13,310 nucleotides of DNA, taken from contig JAVKIP010000038.1 in the NCBI GenBank assembly GCA_031459385.1, positions 1 through 13,310 of the forward strand. The letters run 5' to 3'. The translations under genes and the position numbers were made by a program. The DNA comes from Candidatus Fervidifonticultor secundus (GTDB lineage Bacteria > Sysuimicrobiota > Sysuimicrobiia > Sysuimicrobiales > Humicultoraceae). The notes below the pieces were generated by a model that worked only from the letters and a program-made list of their open reading frames with translations, did not search any database and had not been told where the DNA came from. Shown one piece after another: positions 1,575 through 13,233 of this stretch; positions within the stretch are counted from its first letter, which is position 1; each line of letters starts with the position of its first letter.

Positions 1575-2747
1575 GTGGATCTGGCGGGGCTGCTGCCGGT
1601 CGTCGCCGCAGGCGTGGCCGCGGCTGCTGAGGCGCGGCGCCACTGGGTCTGCTTGCGCAGCATCAGGCACCGCATCCACGTCAACGGGACCAGAGGCAAG
1701 TCGAGCGTGGTGCGGCTGATCGCGGCCGGCCTGCGTGCGGGCGGCCTGCGGGTGGTGGCCAAAACCACCGGGTCGGCGCCGCGCGTCATTCTCCCCGACG
1801 GGTCAGAACGCGACCTGCGGGGTCGGCGCCGCGCGTCGTTGCTCGAGTACCGCAGCGCAGCCGCGCTGGCGGCGCGGCTGCGCGCCGACGCGCTGGTCGC
1901 AGAGTGCATGGCCTTGCGGCCGGAGTCCCAGCGCGTCGCCGAGCACTGCCTGATGCGTTCGACCGTCGGCGTACTCACCGGTGTCGGGCTCGACCACGTG
2001 GGGATCATGGGCGACTCCCTCGCCGAGATCGCCGAGGTCCTGGGCCGGACGATCCCTGCAGGCGGCCTGCTCCTGGTGCCGGGCCCGGAGGTGCCGCCGG
2101 TCTGGCTGGCGAGGGCGCGGGCGCAGGGAACCGTGGTCCGCCTCGTGCAGGTCGAGTCCGGGGTTGTGATGCCTGAGGCCTATCGCGAGTGGCCCGAGAA
2201 CGTGGCCCTGGCCCTGGCCGCCTGCGAGGAGGTAGGGGTCTCGCGCGAGGCCGCGCTCTCCGGTATCAGGATGGCCTCTCCGGACCCTGGTGCCCTGCGG
2301 ATCTGGAGACTTCGGGAACCGGGGCGCCAGACCTTGCTCATCGGAGCGTTCGGCGCCAACGATCCGGACTCATCCCGGCGGATCATCGAACGCGTGCGCC
2401 GGGAGTCCGGCCTGGCAGACGCGCCGGTGGTCGCGGTGCTCAACACGCGCGCCGACCGGGGTGAACGCACCTTGCAGTGGTGCGAGGCGTTGCTGGCCGG
2501 TGCGGTACCGGCCAGCCGCGTGATCGTCACCGGGCCGCACGCCCCTGCGGCCGTACGGATTCTGGTACGGGGTGGGTGGCCACGGCAGGACGCGGCGGCG
2601 GCGCCCCCGCGTCCTGCCGCGATCACCGCTGCCGCAGTGGCCCAGCGCGGTGCTGCCGTTGTCGCCGGCCTGGGCAACGTGCGCGGCGCCGGTGCCGCGC
2701 TGTTGGACTACTGGGCGACGGTCGCCGAAGAGATCGTCCGTGGCTGA
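1575..2747 (+). CDS. pgsB: Poly-gamma-glutamate synthase PgsB/CapB (Mur-ligase superfamily)
   Basis: N-terminal hydrophobic anchor, then RIHVNGTRGKSSVVRLIAAGL (P-loop), AKTTGS, ECMA, DH-x-x-x-MG, PDPGAL, AFGANDPDS and NTRADRGERT, all matching PgsB/CapB motifs. 390 aa, and overlaps pgsC. Confidence 0.93.
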   Translation: MDLAGLLPVVAAGVAAAAEARRHWVCLRSIRHRIHVNGTRGKSSVVRLIAAGLRAGGLRVVAKTTGSAPRVILPDGSERDLRGRRRASLLEYRSAAALAARLRADALVAECMALRPESQRVAEHCLMRSTVGVLTGVGLDHVGIMGDSLAEIAEVLGRTIPAGGLLLVPGPEVPPVWLARARAQGTVVRLVQVESGVVMPEAYREWPENVALALAACEEVGVSREAALSGIRMASPDPGALRIWRLREPGRQTLLIGAFGANDPDSSRRIIERVRRESGLADAPVVAVLNTRADRGERTLQWCEALLAGAVPASRVIVTGPHAPAAVRILVRGGWPRQDAAAAPPRPAAITAAAVAQRGAAVVAGLGNVRGAGAALLDYWATVAEEIVRG

Positions 2748-3171
2748 GCCCATCGGCATCGGTCTGATCGTCTCGCTGGTGCTCTCCGAGGCCGTGGGCC
2801 TCTCAGCCGGAGGGCTCATCACCCCGGCCTACCTGGCGCTGCTGGCGGATCAGCCATGGCGGCTCGCCGGGACCCTGATCGCCGCGACGCTGGCGCTTGG
2901 TATCTACCGCGCGATCGCGGCTTTCCTGATCCTGTTCGGGCGGCGGCGGTTCGTCGCCATGGTGCTGCTGGGTATCCTGTGCAAGTGGGCGGTGACGGCG
3001 CTCGCGCCGGGCCTGGCTGCGACGGTGGGCGTGCCCGTGGGCGCCGTGGGCTTCGTCCTGCCAGGGCTCATCGCCAACGACTTCGAGCGGCAGGGCGTGC
3101 TGGCGACTCTGGCCATGCTGGCGCTGGCGACCGCGGCCTGCGTCCTGGCCTTGCGCGTCCTGGGGTACTGA
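2740..3171 (+). CDS. pgsC: Poly-gamma-glutamate biosynthesis membrane protein PgsC/CapC
   Basis: GTG at 2740 overlaps the pgsB stop, giving a 143-aa hydrophobic protein with IGIGLIVSL, GLSAGGLITPAYLAL, LILFGRRRFVAMVLLG and VGFVLPGLIANDFERQG (CapC motifs). The track's 2572 start adds a spurious extension. Confidence 0.93.
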   Translation: MAEPIGIGLIVSLVLSEAVGLSAGGLITPAYLALLADQPWRLAGTLIAATLALGIYRAIAAFLILFGRRRFVAMVLLGILCKWAVTALAPGLAATVGVPVGAVGFVLPGLIANDFERQGVLATLAMLALATAACVLALRVLGY

Positions 3172-3172
3172 G

Positions 3173-4267
3173 ATGCGCTCGCGACGCTACGGTCCACGGG
3201 CGCTGCTCGCGATGCTCGCCCTGGCTGTGGCCGCAGGCGTCGGGACCCGAGCGGCCTCCCCGGTGCGCGATCCCCACAGCGGCGCCATGCGCCAGGCCGC
3301 CGTGCGCGCCGCCGACGCGATCGCGGTCATTCGCCGCGCCAGGCAGGCCAGGGGGCTGCCTCTCGATCCATACGCCGACCCAAATCGCACGGGTCTGGTC
3401 GGTGTCGAGTCCTCGCCCATCACCACCACGCTGGGTGACCTGGCGGCGAAGCGGACCACCACCAATCCCAACATGGCGGCCGCACTGGTGCGGTGGCTGG
3501 CCGAGGCTGGCGTGCGGCCCGGAGTCGTGGTGGCCGTCGGAGCGTCTGGTTCGTTTCCCGGGCTCATCATCGCGACCCTGGCAGCCGCGCATGCCCTGGG
3601 CGCCGAGCCCGTGGTCATCTCGTCGGTGGCGTCGTCGAGCTGGGGCGCGAACCTCCCGTCGTTGACGTGGCTGGACATGGAAGCCGCCCTGGTCGCCGCG
3701 GGGTGGGGGCCTCGCTCGGTGGCCGCCTCCCCTGGCGGGGACGCCGATGTCGGCGCGGGCCTGGACGCCGATGGGCGAGCGATGCTGCAGGCGGCGATGG
3801 CCCGCAACCGTGTGCCGCCCATCAGGGGCGAGGGCTTGCGCGAGCGCGTCGCCGCCCGGATGGCTGCCTATGATGCTGCGGTCGCGGGCCGGGCGCTGGC
3901 GGCGTTCGTGAACGTGGGCGGGGCCGCCGCCAACGTGGGGACCTGCCTCGGGATCCTCCGCGTCGCGCCGGGCGTGCACCGACGGCTCCCCGCGTGCCGC
4001 GGTGAACCCGGTGTCCTCTGGCTCATGAGCCGCCGCGGCGTGCCGGTCGTACACCTGTTGCACGTGGACGGCATTGCCGCTGCGTTCGGCCTGCCCAGGG
4101 ATCCGGTCCCGCTGCCGGTGCCCGGACTTGGAGCGCCGTTCGCCCGCATGCCGCGCCGGGCCGCCGTGGCCATGCTGGCGCTCCTGCTGAGCGGCATCGC
4201 CGTGATCGTGCGCTGGAACGAACGAACTGTGCGTTCCGTGCGGCCGACCCATCAGGTGGAGGCCTGA
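3173..4267 (+). CDS. pgsW: Poly-gamma-glutamate system accessory protein (PgsW / TIGR04332-like)
   Basis: Starts 1 nt after the pgsC stop. Motifs DPNRTGLVG, SPITTTLGDLAAKRTTTNPN, VAVGASGSFPGL, ISSVASSSWGAN, FVNVGG and GVPVVHLL are as recalled for this family. N-terminal signal/anchor and C-terminal TM helix. Confidence 0.82.
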   Translation: MRSRRYGPRALLAMLALAVAAGVGTRAASPVRDPHSGAMRQAAVRAADAIAVIRRARQARGLPLDPYADPNRTGLVGVESSPITTTLGDLAAKRTTTNPNMAAALVRWLAEAGVRPGVVVAVGASGSFPGLIIATLAAAHALGAEPVVISSVASSSWGANLPSLTWLDMEAALVAAGWGPRSVAASPGGDADVGAGLDADGRAMLQAAMARNRVPPIRGEGLRERVAARMAAYDAAVAGRALAAFVNVGGAAANVGTCLGILRVAPGVHRRLPACRGEPGVLWLMSRRGVPVVHLLHVDGIAAAFGLPRDPVPLPVPGLGAPFARMPRRAAVAMLALLLSGIAVIVRWNERTVRSVRPTHQVEA

Positions 4268-4322: not shown

Positions 4323-4880
4323 GTGCGCACCTGCCTGGCTGTGTGGCTGGCGGTGGCGCTGTTGGTTCTGCCCGACGCCGTCTGGGCGGCGCCATCGTTC
4401 ACCGCGGAACCGCCGGTCCTGCTCACATCCGCGGGGCAGAGTGCCGACCTCCAGATCGTCAAGGTCCTCCTCGACCGGCTCAAGGTCCCATTGATCACGA
4501 AGGCCCTCGCCAGGCCCGACGACCTCCGCGATGCCAAGACGCTGGTCCTGGCCATCGGCGGCAGTACCAAGGGGCTGGGGGCCGCGGGAATCGACGCCGA
4601 CGGCGAGCTCGCCAGACTGCAGGCACTCCTGGCCCGCGCTGGGGAGGCCGGGGTGAAGATCCTGGCGCTGCACGTGGGTGGCAGCGCCCGGCGGGGCGAA
4701 CTCTCGGACCGGTTCATCGCCGCCGTCGTGCCCAAGAGCGGCCATGTGGTAGTGGTCGCAGAAGGCAATGCCGACGGTCTCTTCACGAGGCTGACGGCGC
4801 AGTCGAAGGTGACCATGGAGACGGTGGACAGACTCGGCGATCTGGAAGGGGTGTTGCGCCGCATTTTCCGCGTCCGATAG
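4323..4880 (+). CDS. Exported DUF6305-like protein of unknown function
   Basis: The SD at 4307-4316 favours GTG 4323 over the track's 4314. Signal peptide MRTCLAVWLAVALLVLPDAVWA|A. Conserved-looking blocks PVLLTSAGQSAD, KTLVLAIGGSTKGLGAAGID, LHVGGSARRGELSD and GNADGLFT recall DUF6305. Confidence 0.75.
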   Translation: MRTCLAVWLAVALLVLPDAVWAAPSFTAEPPVLLTSAGQSADLQIVKVLLDRLKVPLITKALARPDDLRDAKTLVLAIGGSTKGLGAAGIDADGELARLQALLARAGEAGVKILALHVGGSARRGELSDRFIAAVVPKSGHVVVVAEGNADGLFTRLTAQSKVTMETVDRLGDLEGVLRRIFRVR

Positions 4881-4921
4881 GTCCGCCGGGCAGCGTCAAT
4901 CCCAAGGGAGGTGAACAGATC

Positions 4922-6613
4922 ATGCCCGCGCGCGTGGAGCGAACGGCCATTGCCTGTCTTGGCGTGCTCCTGATAGCCTCCATGGCGGCGCCCACCCCGG
5001 TGGGCGCGCAGACCGCGCGGCCGATCGCCGTGGGTCGGACGGGGATGGTGGCGTCGGCCACGCCGCTGGCCACAGAGATTGGCCTCCAGATTCTCGAGCA
5101 GGGCGGCAACGCCGTGGATGCCGCGGTGGCCACGGCGTTCGCGCTGGGTGTTGCCGAGCCCAACGCATCGGGTCTCGGCGGCGGTGGGTTTGTGCTTATT
5201 CGCCTCAGGTCGGGAGAGGTGGCGTTCATCGACTACCGGGAGGCCGCCCCTGGCAAAGCCACGCCCGACATGTATCTGGGTCCGGACGGCCGCGTGCGGC
5301 CCAACGCCACCACCATCGGTCACCTGGCCGTGGCCGTGCCCGGCACGCTGGCCGGCCTGGCCATGGCGCTGCAGCGCTACGGCACCATGAGTCTGCGGCA
5401 GGTCATGGCGCCGTCCATCGCCCTGGCCGAGCGCGGGTACGCCGTGACCAAGACGCTCAACGGAATCATGGTCGACAACCTGGCGAAGTTGAACATGTTC
5501 CCCGCCGCGGCCGCGGTATATACCAAACGGGGGTTGCCCTACGACGTGGGCGACCGTCTGGTGCTCAAAGACCTGGCCGCGACCTACCGGCTGATTGCAT
5601 CGTGGGGCCCCGACGTCTTCTACAGGGGCGAGATCGCCGACGCCATCGTGGCGGAGATGGCGCGCGGCCACGGGCTCATCACGAAGGAGGACCTGGCCAA
5701 CTACCGACCGAAGCTGCGCACACCGGTGCGCTCGACCTACCGCGGGTACGAGATCATCTCCAGCCCTCCGCCGTCCTCGGGCGGCACCCATATCATCGAG
5801 GCGCTGAACATCCTCGAGGGGTTCAACATGACGGCCCTGGGATTCCAGACGCCGGCAGCACTCCACGTCACCGCCGAGGCCCTCAAGCGGTCCTTTGCCG
5901 ACCGGGCGCGGTACATGGCCGACACCGACTTCGTGCCGGTGCCAATCGCCGGGCTGACCTCGAAGGCCTACGCCGAGACGCTGCGGCGGACCATCGATCC
6001 GAACCGCGCATCACCGGCCCCCTCGCCCGGCAACCCGGAGCCGTTTGCCAAGTCGGCCAACACCTCGCACATCTCGGTGGTGGACCGCGACGGGAACATG
6101 GTGGCGCTCACGCAGACCATCAACTACTTCTTCGGCTCCGGCGTGCTTGTGCCGGGCACCGGCATCATGCTCAACAACGAGATGGACGACTTCGTACCCA
6201 CGCCGGGTTCGGCCAACTCGGTGCAGGCAGGCAAGCGGCCGCTCTCCAGTATGGCGCCCACCATCGTGCTCAAGGACGGCCGGCCGTTCATGAGCGTGGG
6301 CACGCCGGGTGCCACCCGGATCATCTCGGCCCTGACCCAGATCATCATGAACATCGTGGACTATAACCTGGACATCCAGACGGCCATCGAGGCACCGCGC
6401 ATCCACGCCATGACCCGGGATGTCTTCCTGGAATCCCGCATCCCCCCCGACGTGCGCGAGGCATTGGCCCGCATGGGGCATCCCCTGCAGGTGCGGGGCG
6501 AGATGGACCTCTACTTCGGCGGCGCCCAGGGCATTGTGGTGGCGCCCAACGGCACACTCTACGGCGGCGCCGACCCACGCCGGGACGGGTTTGCCAGGGG
6601 GATCTGGCACTGA
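4922..6613 (+). CDS. ggt: Secreted gamma-glutamyltransferase (Ntn hydrolase; GGT/CapD family), 563 aa
   Basis: SD GGGAGGTGA (4906-4914) precedes ATG 4922, followed by a signal peptide. Motifs GGNAVDAAVA, EPNASGLGGGGF, IDYREAAP, VAVPG, PPPSSGG, the autoproteolysis site N|TSHISVVD (Thr codon 6062-6064), NNEMDDF, KRPLSSM and GGADPRR. Confidence 0.96.
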   Translation: MPARVERTAIACLGVLLIASMAAPTPVGAQTARPIAVGRTGMVASATPLATEIGLQILEQGGNAVDAAVATAFALGVAEPNASGLGGGGFVLIRLRSGEVAFIDYREAAPGKATPDMYLGPDGRVRPNATTIGHLAVAVPGTLAGLAMALQRYGTMSLRQVMAPSIALAERGYAVTKTLNGIMVDNLAKLNMFPAAAAVYTKRGLPYDVGDRLVLKDLAATYRLIASWGPDVFYRGEIADAIVAEMARGHGLITKEDLANYRPKLRTPVRSTYRGYEIISSPPPSSGGTHIIEALNILEGFNMTALGFQTPAALHVTAEALKRSFADRARYMADTDFVPVPIAGLTSKAYAETLRRTIDPNRASPAPSPGNPEPFAKSANTSHISVVDRDGNMVALTQTINYFFGSGVLVPGTGIMLNNEMDDFVPTPGSANSVQAGKRPLSSMAPTIVLKDGRPFMSVGTPGATRIISALTQIIMNIVDYNLDIQTAIEAPRIHAMTRDVFLESRIPPDVREALARMGHPLQVRGEMDLYFGGAQGIVVAPNGTLYGGADPRRDGFARGIWH

Positions 6614-6655
6614 GCTCCGGCCTGTCGGCCCCGACGCCCTGACCCAGTCTGCGGT

Positions 6656-7927
6656 ATGCTACAACCCGCGCTGCTGCTCGTGGCCATGACCGCGGTGTTC
6701 GTCGCGGCGGCCCTGGGCCTGCGCTGGCCGGTGGGGTTCTCGTTGATGCTCGGCGCGGTGGCCGGTACGCTACTGGCCGGCGAGGGCGTGCCGGTCCGCC
6801 ACCTGGTCGAGGGCAGCTTCGGTTTTCTCGACATCACCCTGATGATCGGTTCGGCCATGATCTTCATGAAGGTCTTGCAGCGCAATGGCCTGTTGGAGAC
6901 GCTGGGCCGACAGATCATCGACGGGTTGGGGGATCGGCCCGCGCTGCTGCTGGTGGCGCTGGCGCTGTTCATCATGTTTCCCGGCATGATAACCGGCTCG
7001 TCCAGCGCGTGCGTCTTCACCACGGGTGCCATCGCCGCACCGGTGCTGCTGGCTCTCGGCATCCCCGCGGAACAGACCGCGGCGATCATCGCTGTGGGCG
7101 CGGTGCTGGGCATGATCGCGCCACCGGTCAACATCCCGGCCATGATCATCGGCGGTGGGGTGGACATGCCATACGTAGGGTTCGGGCTCCCTCTACTGGT
7201 GCTCACAGTGCCGCTGGCGATGGGGCTGGTGCTCATGCTGGGGCGTCGCTTCGTGCGGGACCGGGCAGCGATCGCGCCCGACCGGCTGCCCGCCTCGCAC
7301 TACGCCCGCTTCGGCGCCAGGCTCTACCTGCCACTGGTTGTCGTCGGCGTGCTGATGTTTGGTCCCAAGGTGACGCCTCGCCTCCCGGATCTGGGCCTCC
7401 CCCTGATCTTTCTGCTCGGGGCCGCCACGGGGCTCGTCATCGGGCTGCCCATCCATCCCCTTCGCGTGGCCAAAGAGGCGGTACACGAGGCCCTGCCGGT
7501 CATGGGCATCCTGATGGGGGTCGGGATGTTCATCCAGGTCATGACCCTGACCGGGGCCAGGGGTGCGTTCGTGGTGGCGGCCCTGGTGCTGCCCGCCGCC
7601 TTGCTGTTTGTGGCGACCGCGGTGGCCATCCCGCTCTTCGGTGCCGTCTCGGCTTTCGGGTCTGCATCGGTGCTGGGCGTCCCGATCTTCCTGGCCCTGC
7701 TGGGTCGCAACGGGATCGTGGTGGGGTCGGCGCTGTCGCTGGTCGCGAGCCTGGGCGATCTGATGCCGCCCACGGCCCTGGCCGGGATCTTCGCCTCCCA
7801 GGTGGTCGGGCTGCCCGGCTATTTCGGGACGCTGCGGCGCTGCCTGATCCCGGCCGTCATCATTGATCTCGTGGGCATCGGCGCCCTGGTGTGGGCGAAC
7901 CCGTTGGCCCGGCTGCTCGGCCTGTGA
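6656..7927 (+). CDS. Ion-transporter superfamily permease (TRAP large subunit DctM-like / carboxylate transporter)
   Basis: 423 aa with about 11-12 hydrophobic segments. Repeated hairpin-like motifs FPGMITGSS...GMIAPPVNIP and FGAVSAFGS...GDLMPPTALAG are typical of DctM/IT transporters. No clear SD before the start. Confidence 0.8.
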   Translation: MLQPALLLVAMTAVFVAAALGLRWPVGFSLMLGAVAGTLLAGEGVPVRHLVEGSFGFLDITLMIGSAMIFMKVLQRNGLLETLGRQIIDGLGDRPALLLVALALFIMFPGMITGSSSACVFTTGAIAAPVLLALGIPAEQTAAIIAVGAVLGMIAPPVNIPAMIIGGGVDMPYVGFGLPLLVLTVPLAMGLVLMLGRRFVRDRAAIAPDRLPASHYARFGARLYLPLVVVGVLMFGPKVTPRLPDLGLPLIFLLGAATGLVIGLPIHPLRVAKEAVHEALPVMGILMGVGMFIQVMTLTGARGAFVVAALVLPAALLFVATAVAIPLFGAVSAFGSASVLGVPIFLALLGRNGIVVGSALSLVASLGDLMPPTALAGIFASQVVGLPGYFGTLRRCLIPAVIIDLVGIGALVWANPLARLLGL

Positions 7928-8070
7928 TGACCTGGATCTATCGGTGCATCGTGCTACTGCTGGTGGTCCTGGTCACCCTGGACCTGTTCGAGGAGCGCGA
8001 CCGGTTGCGCCAGGCCGTGGCGGTCATGGTCCTCGTGCCGCTGATCTTGCGCTTGCTGATGCTCAGATGA
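7927..8070 (+). CDS. 47-aa two-helix membrane microprotein (not in the ORF track)
   Basis: Translates as MTWIYRCIVLLLVVLVTLDLFEERDRLRQAVAVMVLVPLILRLLMLR*. The ATG shares the permease stop (TGATG, 7925-7929) and its TGA overlaps the next ATG (ATGA, 8067-8070). Third codon positions are GC-rich. Confidence 0.8.
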   Translation: MTWIYRCIVLLLVVLVTLDLFEERDRLRQAVAVMVLVPLILRLLMLR

Positions 8071-9197
8071 AGCGCACGCCGTGGCCGGCCCTGGGATTCG
8101 CCGCGGTGGCTGTGCTGGTGGCGGCCGCGAGCGGCCGCGCGTTCGTGGCGATGCGCGTGCCCGAGCCGATCTTCGCAGGACCGGGCGTCTCCCGACAGCG
8201 CTCGCTGGGGGCGTACAACCCTGTCCTGCGCGGCCGATCGGCCGACACGGGCGTCTACTTCCTCGACGGCGCCCGGCCCGGCGGCACGGTCCTGGTCCTG
8301 GGCGGGACGCATCCCAACGAGCCGGCCGGATACCTGGCAGCGGTGCTCCTCGTGGAGCGCGCCCGGGTTGCTGCCGGTCGCCTGATCGTCGTCCCGCGTG
8401 CCAACGGCAGCGCCTTCACGCACAACGACCCGCAGGAAGCCTCGCCCCAGACCTTCGAGATCTCCACACCCGGGGGGCCGCGCATCTTCCGGTTCGGGTC
8501 GCGCAACACCAACCCCATCGACCAGTGGCCGGACCCGGACGTCTATGTGCACGCCTCGTCGGGACAGCGCCTCTCGGGTAGCGAGGTCCGCAACCTGAAC
8601 CGCGCCTTTCCCGGTCGGCCCGATGGGACGTTCACCGAGCAGATCGCGCTGGCGATCACGACCCTGATCAGGGCCGAGGGGGTGGACCTGGTCATCGACC
8701 TGCACGAGGCGTCGCCGGAGTACCCGGTGATCAACGCCATCGTGGCCCACGAGCGGGCCATGCCCCTGGCGGCGGCGGTGTTACTCGAGATGCAGATGGC
8801 CGGCATCCAGATCGGGCTGGAGCCATCGCCCCAGAGGCTGCGGGGCCTCAGCCATCGCGAACTCGGCGACCATACACCGGCGCTGGCCGTGTTGATGGAG
8901 ACGCCCAACCCGTCACAGGGGCGCATCCGCGGCCGGACCAGCGCCGAGCTGGTCACCGGCGGCCGCGACGTGATCTACGAACGTGCCGCGGCGGCCGGTC
9001 GGCTGTTCGTGCCGTTCGACCCGGGTGGGTGGCCGATCGAGGTCCGGATGGGTCGCCATCTGGCCGGCGTGGGCCTCTTCGCCGCGAGGCTGGGGATCGT
9101 GCGCGCTGGCCGCGCCGTGATCATAGACGATCTTCCCGATCTTGCGGCCCTGCGGCGCAACGGGCTGGGCCGCTACCTGAGCCCGCCGCGGCCATAG
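8067..9197 (+). CDS. Exported M14-type zinc peptidase/deacylase (succinylglutamate desuccinylase/aspartoacylase family), 376 aa
   Basis: GGTHPNEPAG (HxxE, 8310-8321), LIVVPRAN, NLNRAFPG, VIDLHEA (third Zn ligand) and the probable catalytic Glu in METPNP. N-terminal signal/anchor MKRTPWPALGFAAVAVLVAAASG. The start is ATG 8067 rather than 7863. Confidence 0.87.
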   Translation: MKRTPWPALGFAAVAVLVAAASGRAFVAMRVPEPIFAGPGVSRQRSLGAYNPVLRGRSADTGVYFLDGARPGGTVLVLGGTHPNEPAGYLAAVLLVERARVAAGRLIVVPRANGSAFTHNDPQEASPQTFEISTPGGPRIFRFGSRNTNPIDQWPDPDVYVHASSGQRLSGSEVRNLNRAFPGRPDGTFTEQIALAITTLIRAEGVDLVIDLHEASPEYPVINAIVAHERAMPLAAAVLLEMQMAGIQIGLEPSPQRLRGLSHRELGDHTPALAVLMETPNPSQGRIRGRTSAELVTGGRDVIYERAAAAGRLFVPFDPGGWPIEVRMGRHLAGVGLFAARLGIVRAGRAVIIDDLPDLAALRRNGLGRYLSPPRP

Positions 9198-9300: not shown

Positions 9301-11583
9301 ATGCCTGCGGGGTTCACGCGTGAGGACGCGCTCGAATACCACACCCGCGGTCGGCCCGGCAAGATCGCCATCGCGCTCACGAAACCGTGTGCTACCCAGC
9401 GTGACCTGACCCTGGCGTACAGCCCGGGCGTGGCCGAGCCGGTTCGGGAGATCTACAAGCAGCCGCTAGACGCGTACACCTACACCAACAAGGGCAACCT
9501 CGTGGCCGTGCTCAGCAACGGAACGGCCATCCTCGGCCTCGGCAACCTGGGCGCGCTGGCCAGCAAGCCGGTCATGGAGGGTAAGGCGCTACTGTTCAAG
9601 CGCTTCGCCGACGTGGATGCCTTCGACGTCGAGGTGGACGCTACCACGCCCGACGAGATCGTGGCGGCTGGCAAAGCCATCGCCCCCACCTTTGGCGGGA
9701 TCAACCTGGAGGACATCAAGGCGCCCGAGTGCTTCGAGGTCGAGGAGCGACTCAAAGCCGAGCTGGACATCCCGGTCTTCCATGACGACCAGCACGGGAC
9801 GGCCATTATCAGTGGCGCTGGGTTGCTCAACGCCCTCGAGCTGGTCAACAAGCGGATCGAGGACATCAAGGTCGTCATCAGCGGCGCCGGCGCCTCGGCG
9901 ATCGCCAGCGCTGAGTTCTACGTTCGGCTGGGCGTGCGTCGCGAGCACATCACCCTGTGCGACACCAAGGGCGTCATCTACAAGGGCCGGACCGAGAACA
10001 TGAACCCTTACAAGGCACGGTTTGCGGTCGAGACCGAGGCCCGGACGCTGGCGGACGCCATGAGGGGTGCCGACGTGTTCCTGGGGCTCTCGGGGCCCAA
10101 CCTCGTCACCCGCGAGATGGTCCAGAGCATGGCGCGCGACCCGATCATCTTCGCCATGGCCAACCCCGATCCGGAGATTCCCTACGACGAGGCCAAGGCG
10201 GCCAGGCCTGATGCCATCGTGGCCACGGGGCGGTCCGACTACCCGAACCAGGTGAACAACGTGTTGGGCTTCCCGTTCATCTTCCGGGGAGCGCTGGATG
10301 TGCGGGCCAGGGCGATCAACGAAGAGATGAAGGTCGCCGCCGCCAAAGCGCTCGCCGCGCTGGCCAAGGAAGAAGTCCCCGAGACCGTGCTGCGGGCCTA
10401 CGGGCTCACCAGCCTGCGATTCGGCCGAGACTACATCATCCCCAAGCCCAACGACCCCCGGGTCCCGCTCTGGGTGGCCCCGGCGGTGGCCGAGGCAGCC
10501 ATGAAGTCGGGCGTCGCCCGTGTGCAGTTGGACCTCAAGGAATACCGGGATCGCCTCTCCCGCCGGCTCATCCCGGCCTGCGAGGTCATGAACGCCATTG
10601 TGGCGCAGGCGCAGGCCTCGCCGCGCCGCATCGTGTTCCCAGAAGGAGAGGAACCCGGGGTCATTCGGGCCGCGGTGGCCGTGGCCAAGGAACGCATCGG
10701 CCAGCCGATCCTGCTCGGGCGCTCAGAGGTCATCCGTCGGCGCATGGAGGAGATTCGGGTCACAGTCCCCCTGACCGTCATCGATCCCGAGCATGCCCCC
10801 GAGCGCGAGCGCTACGCCGAGGCACTGTTCTTCCTCCGGCAGCGGAAGGGCATGACGCGCCGTGAGGCCCTGACACGGGTGATCCGGCCCGTCATGTTCG
10901 GCATGCTGATGGTTCACATGGGCGACGCGGACGCGTGCATCGCCGGCGTGGCACACAACTACCCCGACGTGATCCGGCCCGCCCTCCAGGTGGTGGGCGT
11001 GGCGCCGGGATTCCGGAGGGTAGCCGGGCTCTATCTGGTGCTGTGGAACCACAAGGTCCTGCTGTTCGCCGATCCTACGGTGAACATAGAGTCGACAGCC
11101 GAAGACCTGGCCGATATCGCCATCATGGCCGCCGACCGGGCCATGCAGTTTCACTTGGCCCCCCGGGTGGCGATGCTGTCGTTCTCGAGCTTCGGATCCA
11201 CGCGGCATCCCCTGTCCGAGAAGGTCCGCCAGGCCACCGAGCTGGTGCGGCAGCGCCGGCCCGACCTCATGGTGGACGGCGAGATGATGGTGGAGACCGC
11301 GCTCAACCCGGAGCTGCGCGAGGCCGAGTACCCGTTCTCGGTGCTGAAGGGCGAGGCGAACGTGCTGATCTTCCCGAGCCTGGAGGCCGCCAACGTGGCC
11401 TACAAGCTCATGGAGCACTTGGCCGGGGCCACGGTCATCGGGCCCATCCTGATGGGCATGGCCCGGTCCATCCACGTCCTGCCCCGCGGGGCCGAGGTGG
11501 ACGCGATCGTGAACATGGCGGCGCTGGCCGTCGTCGACGCCCAGTTGCTGGAGCTGCGACCGCGCCGCGCTGCGGCGGGCTAA
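9301..11583 (+). CDS. maeB: NADP-dependent malic enzyme with C-terminal phosphotransacetylase-like domain
   Basis: ALEYH...[69 protein letters not shown] and [17 protein letters not shown]. The PTA-like domain has [17 protein letters not shown] and [23 protein letters not shown] at 9284-9291. Confidence 0.97.
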
Positions 11584-11624: not shown

Positions 11625-13157
11625 TCAGCGAGCCCGTTCCGGCTCCCAGCCGTAGACCGGCAGGATGTCGACTGGCGCGTAATCGTCGGTCAGCAGAGGC
11701 ACGTCGCTGGTGGCGACCCGGCCGCCGTAGTAGTCGCGGGCGTAGCGGTCCAGCGGCAGCGTCACCCGGCCGCTGGACCGCAGCGCTCGAGCAGCCGTCA
11801 GGATCTCGTCGGCATCGATCCCCGTTCGGCTCGTGGCGATCAGGACGATCGTGCGCGTGTCGGTCGTGATGCGGGCCGGGCCGAATGCCGCCGGGAAGGG
11901 ATAGAGCCCGGGGAACACCGAGCCGTAGGTCTTGTGTAGGGCGCGGTAGAGGCGGCTGTTGCTGCCCTCGAGTGCGCCGATGATGTTCGAGGCGACCAAC
12001 CCTCCCGGGTTGAGATGGTCACGGACGATCTCGAGGAATTCCCGCGTCGCCAGATGGAAGGGGATGCCCTCGGCGAAGTACGCGTCCAGCACGATCAGGT
12101 CGTATTTGGCCTCGGCGCGCCGCAGGTAGACCCGGCCGTCGTCCACGATGATCCGGTGGCGGGGGTGGTCTCTGACCTCGAAGAAGCGCTTCGCGACGTC
12201 AACGACCGCTGGGTCGAGCTCGACGCTGTCAACGGTCACCTCCGGGTAGTCACGCAGGAAGCGCTTGGGTATCGTGCCCGAACCCAGACCGATCACCAGG
12301 ACCCGCCTGATAGTGGGCTGGAACGCCAGCGCCAGGTGGGCGTATGACGTGTAGAGGAAGGGGCTCTCGTAGGGGTTCTTCAGGACCATGCCGCCCTGGA
12401 ACGACCGGTTGAAACGCAGGTACCGGTTCAGACCGTCCTCCAAGACGCTGATCTGGTGATACGCGCTGTCCTTCTCATAGATGACCCGCTGCTGGGGCAG
12501 CCGGATCGGCCCACCCCGGGCCGGCGCCGTAGTCAGCACCAGGGCGACCGCTGCCGCAGCGGAGAGGACCGGCCGCGCGGTCCTCTGGCCGGTCAGGACC
12601 AGGAGGCCGGCCAGGACCAGGAGGCCGCCACCAAGCAGGATCAGGATGGCCCGCACGCCCATGGAAGGGATCAGGAAGAACGCCGTGGCGATGGTGCCGA
12701 AGATGCTGCCCGCGGTCGACAGGGCGTACAGGACGCCGGCGCTGGTGCCGACGGTCGCCAGGTCGCGTGCGACCAGCTTGATGGCGAACGGTGAGGTCGT
12801 CCCCATCAGAATGCTGGGTAGTGCGAACAGCACGATGGATGCCAGCAGTGGGCCAAGCCGCGGGCCCAGATTCCAGGTGTCGAACGCCCACAGCACGGGC
12901 CGGGAGACCACGTTGAGCGCCAGGATCGTCACGCCGGCCAGCGCCAGCAGCGTGGCCAGCACCCCGGCTCTGGGCCACCGGTCGGCCATGGTACCGCCCA
13001 GGTAGTACCCGAGACTGAGCGCGGCCAGGAAGATACTGATCAGCCCGCCCCAGACGAAGACCGAACTCCCGAAAAACGGCGCGATCAGCCGGCTGCCCAC
13101 GATCTCCAGGCCCATCAGGATGGCACCGCTCCCGAAGACCACCACACGCAAGATCAC
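11625..13157 (-). CDS. Fused MFS-like membrane domain / spermidine-synthase-like class I SAM-fold protein
   Basis: About 7 N-terminal TM segments (GAILMGLEIVGSRLIAPFFGSS, GYYLGG, YALSTAGSIFGT), then EKDSAYHQISV, VLVIGLGSGT, VELDPAVVDVAKRFF, DDGRVYL, YDLIVLDAY, HLATREF and LTDDYAP. GGAGG lies 6 nt upstream of GTG 13157, favouring it over 13172. Confidence 0.88.
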   Translation of the reverse strand: MILRVVVFGSGAILMGLEIVGSRLIAPFFGSSVFVWGGLISIFLAALSLGYYLGGTMADRWPRAGVLATLLALAGVTILALNVVSRPVLWAFDTWNLGPRLGPLLASIVLFALPSILMGTTSPFAIKLVARDLATVGTSAGVLYALSTAGSIFGTIATAFFLIPSMGVRAILILLGGGLLVLAGLLVLTGQRTARPVLSAAAAVALVLTTAPARGGPIRLPQQRVIYEKDSAYHQISVLEDGLNRYLRFNRSFQGGMVLKNPYESPFLYTSYAHLALAFQPTIRRVLVIGLGSGTIPKRFLRDYPEVTVDSVELDPAVVDVAKRFFEVRDHPRHRIIVDDGRVYLRRAEAKYDLIVLDAYFAEGIPFHLATREFLEIVRDHLNPGGLVASNIIGALEGSNSRLYRALHKTYGSVFPGLYPFPAAFGPARITTDTRTIVLIATSRTGIDADEILTAARALRSSGRVTLPLDRYARDYYGGRVATSDVPLLTDDYAPVDILPVYGWEPERAR

Positions 13158-13233
13158 AGCGTGCCTCCCCACCGAGATCCGGCCAACACTTCGCCCCTGG
13201 CCGCGATCGGGCCTTCTGCCCCAGCACGCTGAT

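Follow-up and report, generated by a model that had tools for sequence, protein, structure and literature searches.

Gene content of the locus

A stretch of 13,310 nucleotides from Candidatus Fervidifonticultor secundus (contig JAVKIP010000038.1), hereafter the window, carries genes for a putative elevator-type transporter within a cluster of genes for poly-gamma-glutamate metabolism. The window is one contig of a 3.3-Mb genome, with 70% G+C, and its nearest public relatives are metagenome-assembled genomes of Armatimonadota. The genes from pgsB to that for an AstE-like hydrolase form a single cluster on the + strand, in which neighbouring genes either overlap or are separated by no more than ~55 nt.

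The transporter genes are those for an elevator-type permease of 423 aa (6656..7927; ATG start) and for a membrane microprotein of 47 aa with two predicted helices (7927..8070), which overlaps the genes on both sides. An AstE/AspA-type (M14-like) zinc hydrolase of 376 aa, predicted to be membrane-anchored (8067..9197, +; PF24827, 41.8 bits), closes the cluster. Upstream of the permease gene are those for an exported DUF6305 protein of 185 aa, made up of a leader and one Rossmann-like alpha/beta domain (4323..4880; PF19823, 156.2 bits), and for a gamma-glutamyltransferase (GGT) of the GGT/CapD family with an N-terminal leader (4922..6613; PF01019, 572.6 bits; TIGR00066, 561.6 bits), which begins with an ATG after GGAGG. 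A first-pass annotation, made from the sequence alone, had described the segment 4323..8070 as a candidate non-canonical tripartite ATP-independent periplasmic (TRAP)-like transporter, with a DctM-like permease, an exported DUF6305 protein and a coupled two-helix microprotein. These three genes are indeed present, but the GGT gene inside the same segment had gone unmentioned and the AstE-like gene just downstream had been omitted.

Judged by family matches, the preceding part of the cluster (1575–4267) is a PgsA-less poly-gamma-glutamate synthase set. It comprises genes for PgsB, the ligase subunit of the synthase (1575..2747; NCBIfam TIGR04012, 292.4 bits, cut-off 222.7), PgsC (~2752..3171; Caps_synth_CapC of Pfam, 114 bits; TIGR04011, 115.8 bits, cut-off 96.45) and a TIGR04332 'poly-gamma-glutamate system protein' (3173..4267; NCBIfam, 299.5 bits, cut-off 100), all on the + strand. 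The start of pgsC is approximate, as the open reading frame (ORF) listed for it at 2572–3171 overlaps pgsB. No PgsA/CapA or PgsE/CapE family was matched among the 12 ORFs of the window by Pfam and NCBIfam, libraries that were not confirmed to include a PgsE model. The TIGR04332 protein has 364 aa, with hydrophobic segments at both termini, and stands after PgsC in the place taken by PgsA in Bacillus.

Relationship of the permease to DctM

DctM (PF06808) was the sole Pfam family to exceed its cut-off for the permease (41.4 bits, cut-off 23.8, E 1.1e-10, residues 15–387). CitMHS reached 19.3 bits, short of its Pfam cut-off of 31.9, and there was neither an NCBIfam match nor a Pfam match to the DASS or ArsB families at E≤0.01. 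In a genome-wide search with PF06808 the permease (40.8 bits) was the weakest of ten matches. The canonical DctM copies in the same genome comprise seven full-length proteins at 260–415 bits and an eighth, split locus (148.7 and 80 bits). Alignment of the permease family with these DctM proteins by hhalign gave a match of 97.4% (E 1.2e-11, 312 columns, 21% identity), in which the GxxTGSS, APPV and MPPTA motifs of the permease line up with their DctM counterparts. By these profile comparisons, the permease is a remote homologue of DctM.

A phmmer search of 1.84 billion representatives reached just 469 permease relatives at E≤1e-3; hence the family is compact and separate from canonical DctM at the level of single sequences. 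A word-indexed search returned thousands of close relatives of 413–471 aa, the named ones being automatically labelled 'TRAP transporter large permease' or 'GntP family'.

The AlphaFold2 model of the permease (predicted local distance difference test score, pLDDT, of 88.4) has the elevator fold of the ion-transporter superfamily. TRAP M subunits were near the top of the Foldseek matches, and VIA-align gave Z scores of 27.4 for NaS1 (root-mean-square deviation 4.0, 410 residues aligned), 26.9 for ArsB, 23.9 for NaDC3, 23.6 for SiaM, 23.5 for IseQM and 23.1 for VcINDY. Assignment to TRAP by fold alone was tried and rejected, since the ranking by either program cannot separate TRAP M subunits from DASS or ArsB carriers: NaS1 and ArsB match as closely as SiaM. 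The label 'TRAP-like' given to the system earlier stands insofar as it refers to remote homology with DctM; the fold by itself is not enough to justify it.

The absence of the usual TRAP partners, on the other hand, was borne out in the window, on the contig and in related loci. No DctQ, DctP (PF03480) or TAXI (PF16868) protein was found by Pfam and NCBIfam among the 12 ORFs of the window or anywhere on the contig, and all matches to DctQ (2), DctP (2) and TAXI (7 above cut-off) in the genome sit on other contigs. Likewise, Pfam revealed no DctP, DctQ or TAXI among 77 neighbouring ORFs of 15 related loci. As a control, canonical DctM genes of the same genome were inspected for their neighbours; five are accompanied by DctQ (as a separate gene or fused), by DctP or TAXI, or by both. 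At 423 aa the permease has no N-terminal extension and hence no fused DctQ (PF04290).

Conservation of the gene cassette

An alignment of 21 permeases used as bait on contigs from one genome per species gave 80 loci (49–94% identity), including those of Fusobacterium, Cetobacterium, Clostridium tetanomorphum, Synergistaceae, Calditrichota, KSB1, Bipolaricaulota, Spirochaetales and Desulfobacterota. Recurrence of the gene set across phyla shows that it is not a chance assembly. When the proteins of the window were compared with all 80 loci by tblastn, the AstE-like hydrolase was found in 77, DUF6305 in 67, GGT in 64, TIGR04332 and PgsC in 45 each and PgsB in 43. Many of these loci are cut by contig ends. 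In the 39 that are flanked by 8 kb or more on each side, DUF6305, GGT and the AstE-like hydrolase were present without exception (39/39 each), and TIGR04332, PgsC and PgsB, counted within 10 kb, were present in 32, 31 and 28 loci, respectively.

The reverse search, using an alignment of 44 DUF6305 sequences in metagenomes, also gave 80 loci. The permease, GGT and the AstE-like hydrolase were each found in 26/26 of those flanked by 4 kb or more on each side, and the 11 of the 80 loci that had no permease match were all short or ended within ~1.9 kb past the DUF6305 gene. The co-occurrence of DUF6305 and the permease, proposed earlier as a check, is therefore complete in fully flanked loci with either bait. 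As an argument that DUF6305 is the partner of the permease it is less telling: the two are always linked in such loci, but no more tightly than the permease and GGT, and more loosely than the permease and the AstE-like hydrolase.

Gene order is conserved to different degrees. The start of the AstE-like gene lies 100–500 nt past the permease in 71/77 genome loci and 47/48 metagenome loci. DUF6305 is encoded immediately 5' of the permease in 68/69 metagenome loci; in 67 genome loci it stands directly before the permease in 39, directly after the AstE-like gene in 13, further upstream in 11 and elsewhere in four. The window has the 'further upstream' arrangement, with the GGT gene intervening before the permease.

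Two loci contain a second, divergent set of permease, microprotein and AstE-like genes (L049, 15107–17605; L088, 6481–9114), which indicates that these three genes duplicate as a unit. The paralogues in L088 are 33% (permease) and 44% (hydrolase) identical to the proteins of the window. A single DUF6305 gene was found in each of the two loci despite the duplication. The strictly linked genes, those for GGT, DUF6305, the permease, the microprotein and the anchored hydrolase, form a core that is usually located beside PgsA-less synthase genes.

The microprotein and its modelled complex with the permease

Conservation places the start of the microprotein at an ATG (7927) that overlaps the stop codon of the permease gene (cTGATGa); the ORF listed at 7891–8070 would give 59 aa from a GTG. 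Its stop in turn overlaps the start of the AstE-like gene (cagATGAag, 8067–8070). The 47-aa product has two hydrophobic segments, and its homologues, of 47–50 aa, are encoded between permease and hydrolase. They share the consensus M-T-x-I-Y...E-K-D...Q...I-P-L-x-L-R-x-L-M-I-K, where Y5, L41 and R42 are invariant and E23 is conserved.

A hidden Markov model built from 42 sequences and run on all stop-to-stop frames detected the microprotein in 78/78 permease-baited and 50/50 DUF6305-baited loci, counting those that have the permease and at least 250 nt beyond it. The protein database holds 626 microprotein clusters. Among the 120 listed, all but one were of 47–50 aa (the exception has 74 aa), none had a Pfam family and every named one was 'hypothetical'.

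A model of the permease with the microprotein as the scored partner gave an ipSAE of 0.62, compared with 0.00 for the best of three controls, a verdict that supports binding of the microprotein to the permease. Among solved complexes, 116 of 157 reach the mark applied, as do 2 of 215 mismatched pairs; these counts serve only as a rough guide here because the run used alignments built by the authors. Contacts agreed between runs by at least 98%, and the pLDDT of the microprotein was at least 78. Both predicted helices (residues 4–19 and 27–42) contact the permease at residues 24–31, 51–66, 249–253 and 272–288, which correspond to the second and third helices of each inverted repeat in the AlphaFold2 model. 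The conserved hairpin motifs (110–116, 155–159, 332–338 and 367–374) lie outside these segments. The contacted helices are read, by analogy with SiaM, as the scaffold and so as the place that DctQ would occupy in TRAP. In SiaQM, according to PMC9971032, Q touches only the scaffold of M, which is proposed to let the elevator work as a monomer. The earlier suggestion of a minimal DctQ substitute is thus strengthened in part, by the conservation of the microprotein and by its modelled position.

The DUF6305 protein

The DUF6305 gene starts with GTG at 4323, ~8 nt after AGGAGG, and its product begins with a hydrophobic N-terminal leader. The match to PF19823 (cut-off 25 bits, E 6.5e-46) covers the full model (1–154), and the gene is present in a single copy in the genome. 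In the AlphaFold2 model (pLDDT 94.9) the leader is followed by one three-layer alpha/beta domain (residues ~30–185) that is not two-lobed. Some homologues from Firmicutes have a Cys-containing leader of the lipoprotein type.

Twelve residues are invariant in 44 DUF6305 sequences (G38, Q39, G79, S81, K83, G84, G86, A88, E95, H117, G120 and R124), and R123 is conserved in at least 90%. The invariant residues map to the points in the model where strands 1, 3 and 4 end and the helices after them begin, the crevice in which Rossmann-like folds commonly hold their ligand, and the basic ones would suit a carboxylate.

Fold comparison yielded generic Rossmann-like relatives and assigned no family. The top Foldseek match in the PDB was ThiM kinase (E 3.6e-4, TM-score 0.49), and the best Z score of VIA-align against 48,161 chains was 10.2, near the tool's background of 7–8, with matches to ribokinase-like proteins, ThiM, half-domains of GT-B glycosyltransferases and CheY. 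When the DUF6305 alignment was used as a profile against the PDB, the matches were at chance level only, the best being dihydropteroate synthase (E 0.003, 40 residues), and the ESM Atlas gave no usable match. Identity as an SGNH hydrolase was considered, as a GQS that follows strand 1 and a GNxDG are reminiscent of blocks I and III of that family, and was dropped because the invariant His precedes both of these block-like motifs.

Four longer proteins that include DUF6305 were found, none of them joined to the permease, GGT or the AstE-like hydrolase, which is weak evidence. One (P0271, 587 aa, from a metagenome) has three tandem DUF6305 domains (PF19823, 493 bits, three stretches). Another (P0273, 400 aa) combines a Mur-ligase middle domain with DUF6305 and may have arisen from a gene call that joined PgsB to DUF6305.

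The AstE-like hydrolase

The PDB relatives of the hydrolase are AstE/AspA and DoeB deacetylase (2qj8, 6twm and 3na6). H82, E85, H213 and E278, which we take from the family to be the metal ligands and catalytic base, are kept in at least 71 of 72 homologues, and eight arginines are conserved in at least 95% of the 72. The N-terminal hydrophobic segment is retained in the AstE-like sequences shown. The protein is read from these features as a probable active membrane-anchored ectoenzyme with an acidic substrate.

Neighbouring genes

In 15 loci, ORFs next to the cassette were assigned by Pfam to extra GGT copies, short AstE/M99-like peptidases and other gamma-glutamyl or carboxypeptidase enzymes. 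Single loci have a D-glutamate cyclase (L058, 4735–6321), a poly-gamma-glutamate hydrolase of PF05908 (L070, 2950–3978) and an M14 carboxypeptidase (L026, 3659–5329). These neighbours suggest gamma-glutamyl breakdown and the use of glutamate. Many of the hosts, such as Fusobacterium, Clostridium tetanomorphum and Synergistaceae, are amino-acid fermenters. The short AstE/M99-like peptidases (~240 aa) recur, placed between the long hydrolase and PgsB.

Firmicutes, Fusobacteria, Synergistota and Spirochaetes repeatedly have genes for a histidine kinase (~450–470 aa) and a response regulator (~206–227 aa) next to the cassette; the window has neither. Such pairs are located at 16206–18198 in L026, 5429–7427 in L042, 17299–19310 in L023, 5378–7391 in L021, 16348–18343 in L058, 17986–20039 in L082 and 16146–18278 in L088. 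The helix-turn-helix domain of the regulator is DpiA-like in L088 and of the IclR type in L058 (one each). The pair may be a sensor that controls the cassette.

In the window itself, a tandem-Usp gene (735–1565, +) lies directly ahead of pgsB. Downstream of the cluster are genes for a malic enzyme with a phosphotransacetylase-like domain (9301–11583) and, on the − strand and convergent to the cluster, a fused MFS/spermidine-synthase protein (11625–13172; NF037959, 220 bits). An open-ended frame of 315 aa at the left edge (2–949, +) has no Pfam or NCBIfam match and may not be a gene in DNA of such high G+C content. Scanning of the window found no promoters and six terminator-like sites, against 3.4 ± 2.3 expected from shuffled sequences.

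No paper on the cassette or module, DUF6305 (PF19823) or TIGR04332 was found, and none of the literature matches listed concerned a DctM system without DctQ. The literature on Fusobacterium and pgsB consisted of reviews, one of which (PMC3815933) never uses the word 'transporter'.

Interpretation

Our preferred interpretation, held with moderate confidence, is that the locus encodes a two-subunit elevator uptake carrier inside a cassette for poly-gamma-glutamate turnover. PgsB, PgsC and the TIGR04332 protein would make the polymer. The exported GGT and the membrane-anchored AstE-like hydrolase, as exo-acting gamma-glutamyl enzymes outside the membrane, would free glutamate or very short gamma-Glu peptides from it, and the carrier would import the product. 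The carrier itself would be an elevator-type secondary transporter of two subunits, the permease and the 47-aa microprotein, in which the latter packs on the scaffold helices in place of the four-helix DctQ; the scaffold so enlarged could permit a monomeric carrier. The DUF6305 protein, exported or lipid-tethered and with a conserved, positively charged crevice, would serve the same module, possibly as a cargo receptor. Glutamate or gamma-Glu oligomers had been named as cargo by the first-pass annotation, and this fits the surrounding genes. The identities of the genes, their conserved linkage, the remote homology to DctM and the lack of DctQ, DctP and TAXI are established here and the contact of microprotein and permease is modelled, whereas in the above scheme we infer the substrate, the direction of transport, the monomeric state and the role of DUF6305.

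Several observations weigh against the proposed carrier. The substrate and direction of transport are read solely from neighbouring genes, and because synthesis genes share the operon, a role in supply or export is conceivable. The fold of the permease is as near to the dimeric DASS and ArsB carriers (Z 27.4 and 26.9) as to SiaM (23.6). The complex score expresses the model's own confidence, and the model may lean on the likeness to Q-M pairs, as SiaQ-SiaM complexes have already been solved. The microprotein matches no Pfam or NCBIfam family, DctQ included. More than 500 nt separate the permease and AstE-like genes in 6/77 loci, and in the six loci with an insert that were inspected (L028, L037, L041, L046, L063 and L070) the microprotein adjoins the AstE-like gene. 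In two of these, of the Calditrichota/Deferribacteres type, the gap between permease and microprotein is filled by a gene for a protein of 444–460 aa with a leader (L028, 7082–8416; L046, 2626–4008). The placement of DUF6305 varies (before the permease in 39/67 and after the AstE-like gene in 13/67 genome loci), and no binding protein is among its fold matches listed by Foldseek and VIA-align, which does not thereby rule out a family not listed.

A receptor, a polymer-binding factor and an enzyme fit DUF6305 about equally. It is quite possible, though short of probable, that DUF6305 stands outside the transporter as an extracytoplasmic enzyme or polymer-handling factor, and that the permease and microprotein import the free product in the manner of GntP, DASS or CitMHS carriers. 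Relatives of the permease indeed have precomputed matches to CitMHS, DcuC and NhaC, families that need no binding protein, and the position of DUF6305 in the cluster is variable. The invariant S81, H117 and E95 and the glycine-rich loops at the crevice would fit catalysis, but no known hydrolase catalytic motif was matched and the order of the residues is unlike that of SGNH enzymes; Foldseek does list SGNH esterases and cutinases as weak matches, the esterases at TM-scores of no more than 0.30–0.37. Tandem domains are common in polymer-binding proteins, and the protein with three DUF6305 domains would be in line with this, as it would with a receptor. The location of DUF6305 immediately ahead of the permease in most loci speaks against a function apart from the transporter and is the usual position of a binding-protein gene (68/69 metagenome and 39/67 genome loci). 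We nevertheless regard as rather doubtful that DUF6305 is a single-domain, perhaps oligomeric, receptor handing glutamate or gamma-Glu oligomers to the permease and microprotein, which would make the system a new binding-protein-dependent type. Such a receptor would account for the co-occurrence with the permease in every fully flanked locus, for the leader peptide found everywhere, including the lipoprotein-type Cys leader of some Firmicutes, as carried by Gram-positive binding proteins, and for the clustering of K83, H117, R124 and R123 in one crevice, which would suit a carboxylate ligand. However, GGT and the AstE-like hydrolase co-occur with the permease as strictly, and hence linkage fails to mark DUF6305 as the partner of the transporter. 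Moreover, DUF6305 is one domain of 155 residues with no two-lobed clamp, its best folds are kinases, glycosyltransferase halves and CheY at Z scores close to background, neither the PDB profile search nor the ESM Atlas provided a lead, and the loci with a duplicated trio have one DUF6305 gene.

The remaining alternatives concern the microprotein and the direction of transport. As the microprotein adjoins the AstE-like gene in the loci with inserts, it could belong to the hydrolase, or to both proteins. That it mainly serves the AstE-like ectoenzyme as a partner or membrane anchor, or holds together a permease-microprotein-hydrolase complex that channels the product, and is no substitute for DctQ, is improbable in our view. 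The ATGA overlap of its stop with the AstE-like start is matched by the overlap of its start with the permease stop. Duplication of the three genes as a unit and the N-terminal membrane segment kept in the AstE-like sequences would suit such a complex, and the loop at residues 20–26, including the conserved E23, is missing from the list of permease contacts; against this, both helices lie on the permease in a complex model of high confidence whose controls are clean. Still less credence is given to a carrier that serves synthesis, by supplying glutamate to PgsB, by exporting glutamate or oligomers or by secreting the polymer in PgsA-less systems. The carrier does share an operon with PgsB, PgsC and TIGR04332 in the window, pgs genes lie within 10 kb in 28–32 of the 39 fully flanked loci, and no PgsA was found among the window ORFs scanned. 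But 7–11 of the 39 cassettes have no given pgs gene within that distance, the strictly linked partners are hydrolases (GGT and AstE-like) rather than synthase subunits, and elevator carriers of the ion-transporter superfamily transport small anions, not polymers. Import of the monomer for synthesis would hardly be distinct from the uptake carrier that we prefer.

A wider proposal, which we consider unlikely, is that the DctM-like elevator, a two-helix 'mini-Q' that completes its scaffold, a single-domain DUF6305 receptor and a membrane-anchored hydrolase that makes the cargo at the site together constitute a receptor-dependent secondary transporter of a fourth kind, in addition to DctP-TRAP, TAXI-TRAP and TTT. 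If this were true, breakdown of the polymer and uptake would be physically coupled at the membrane. As for the two-subunit uptake carrier, TRAP is the textbook monomeric elevator, with DctQ enlarging the scaffold, and a two-helix partner of 47 residues would show the minimum needed for that job; the pair would also offer a small, tractable system for structural work. Hundreds of species, most of them anaerobic, carry the cassette; gut and oral genera, Fusobacterium for example, are among them. If the polymer is made, broken down and re-imported, poly-gamma-glutamate would be an external store of glutamate, beyond its function as a capsule. Three of the families in the cassette lack both an assigned function and, as far as we could find, a paper: DUF6305, the microprotein and TIGR04332.

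Comparison with known systems

The locus resembles the pgsBCAE/capBCADE systems of Bacillus, with their GGT, CapD and PgdS enzymes, in having PgsB and PgsC equivalogs and a GGT-family enzyme together. It differs from them in the absence of PgsA/CapA, for which TIGR04332 stands instead, and of PgdS. To our knowledge, the Bacillus poly-gamma-glutamate loci contain no AstE-like hydrolase, DUF6305 or dedicated carrier. Fusobacterium nucleatum carries the cassette (L042). On polyglutamate production by this species, PMC3815933 cites Candela et al. 2009.

The DASS and ArsB carriers (VcINDY, NaCT, NaS1 and ArsB) include the top structural matches of the permease and share its elevator architecture with two hairpin motifs, a likeness of fold that is high but common to the superfamily as a whole. 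They dimerise through the scaffold (PMC9971032), whereas in the model of the permease this surface would be occupied by the microprotein and not by a dimer partner. The permease further has no sequence-family match to these carriers.

With the TRAP systems (DctPQM, SiaPQM, IseQM and TAXI-QM) the cassette shares a large subunit homologous to DctM, of the same size and with the same inverted-repeat layout of helices, and an exported small protein encoded alongside the permease. A separate small membrane protein is predicted to sit on the scaffold helices, as SiaQ does on SiaM. Uptake by TRAP strictly needs a binding protein and a sodium gradient (PMC9971032). Unlike TRAP, the cassette has no DctP or TAXI, and its candidate receptor is a single domain in contrast to a two-lobed clamp. 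The small subunit is a two-helix protein of 47 aa and not the four-helix DctQ of ~180 aa, the DctM score of the permease is far below those of the TRAP permeases in the same genome, and a membrane-anchored hydrolase is fixed to the unit.

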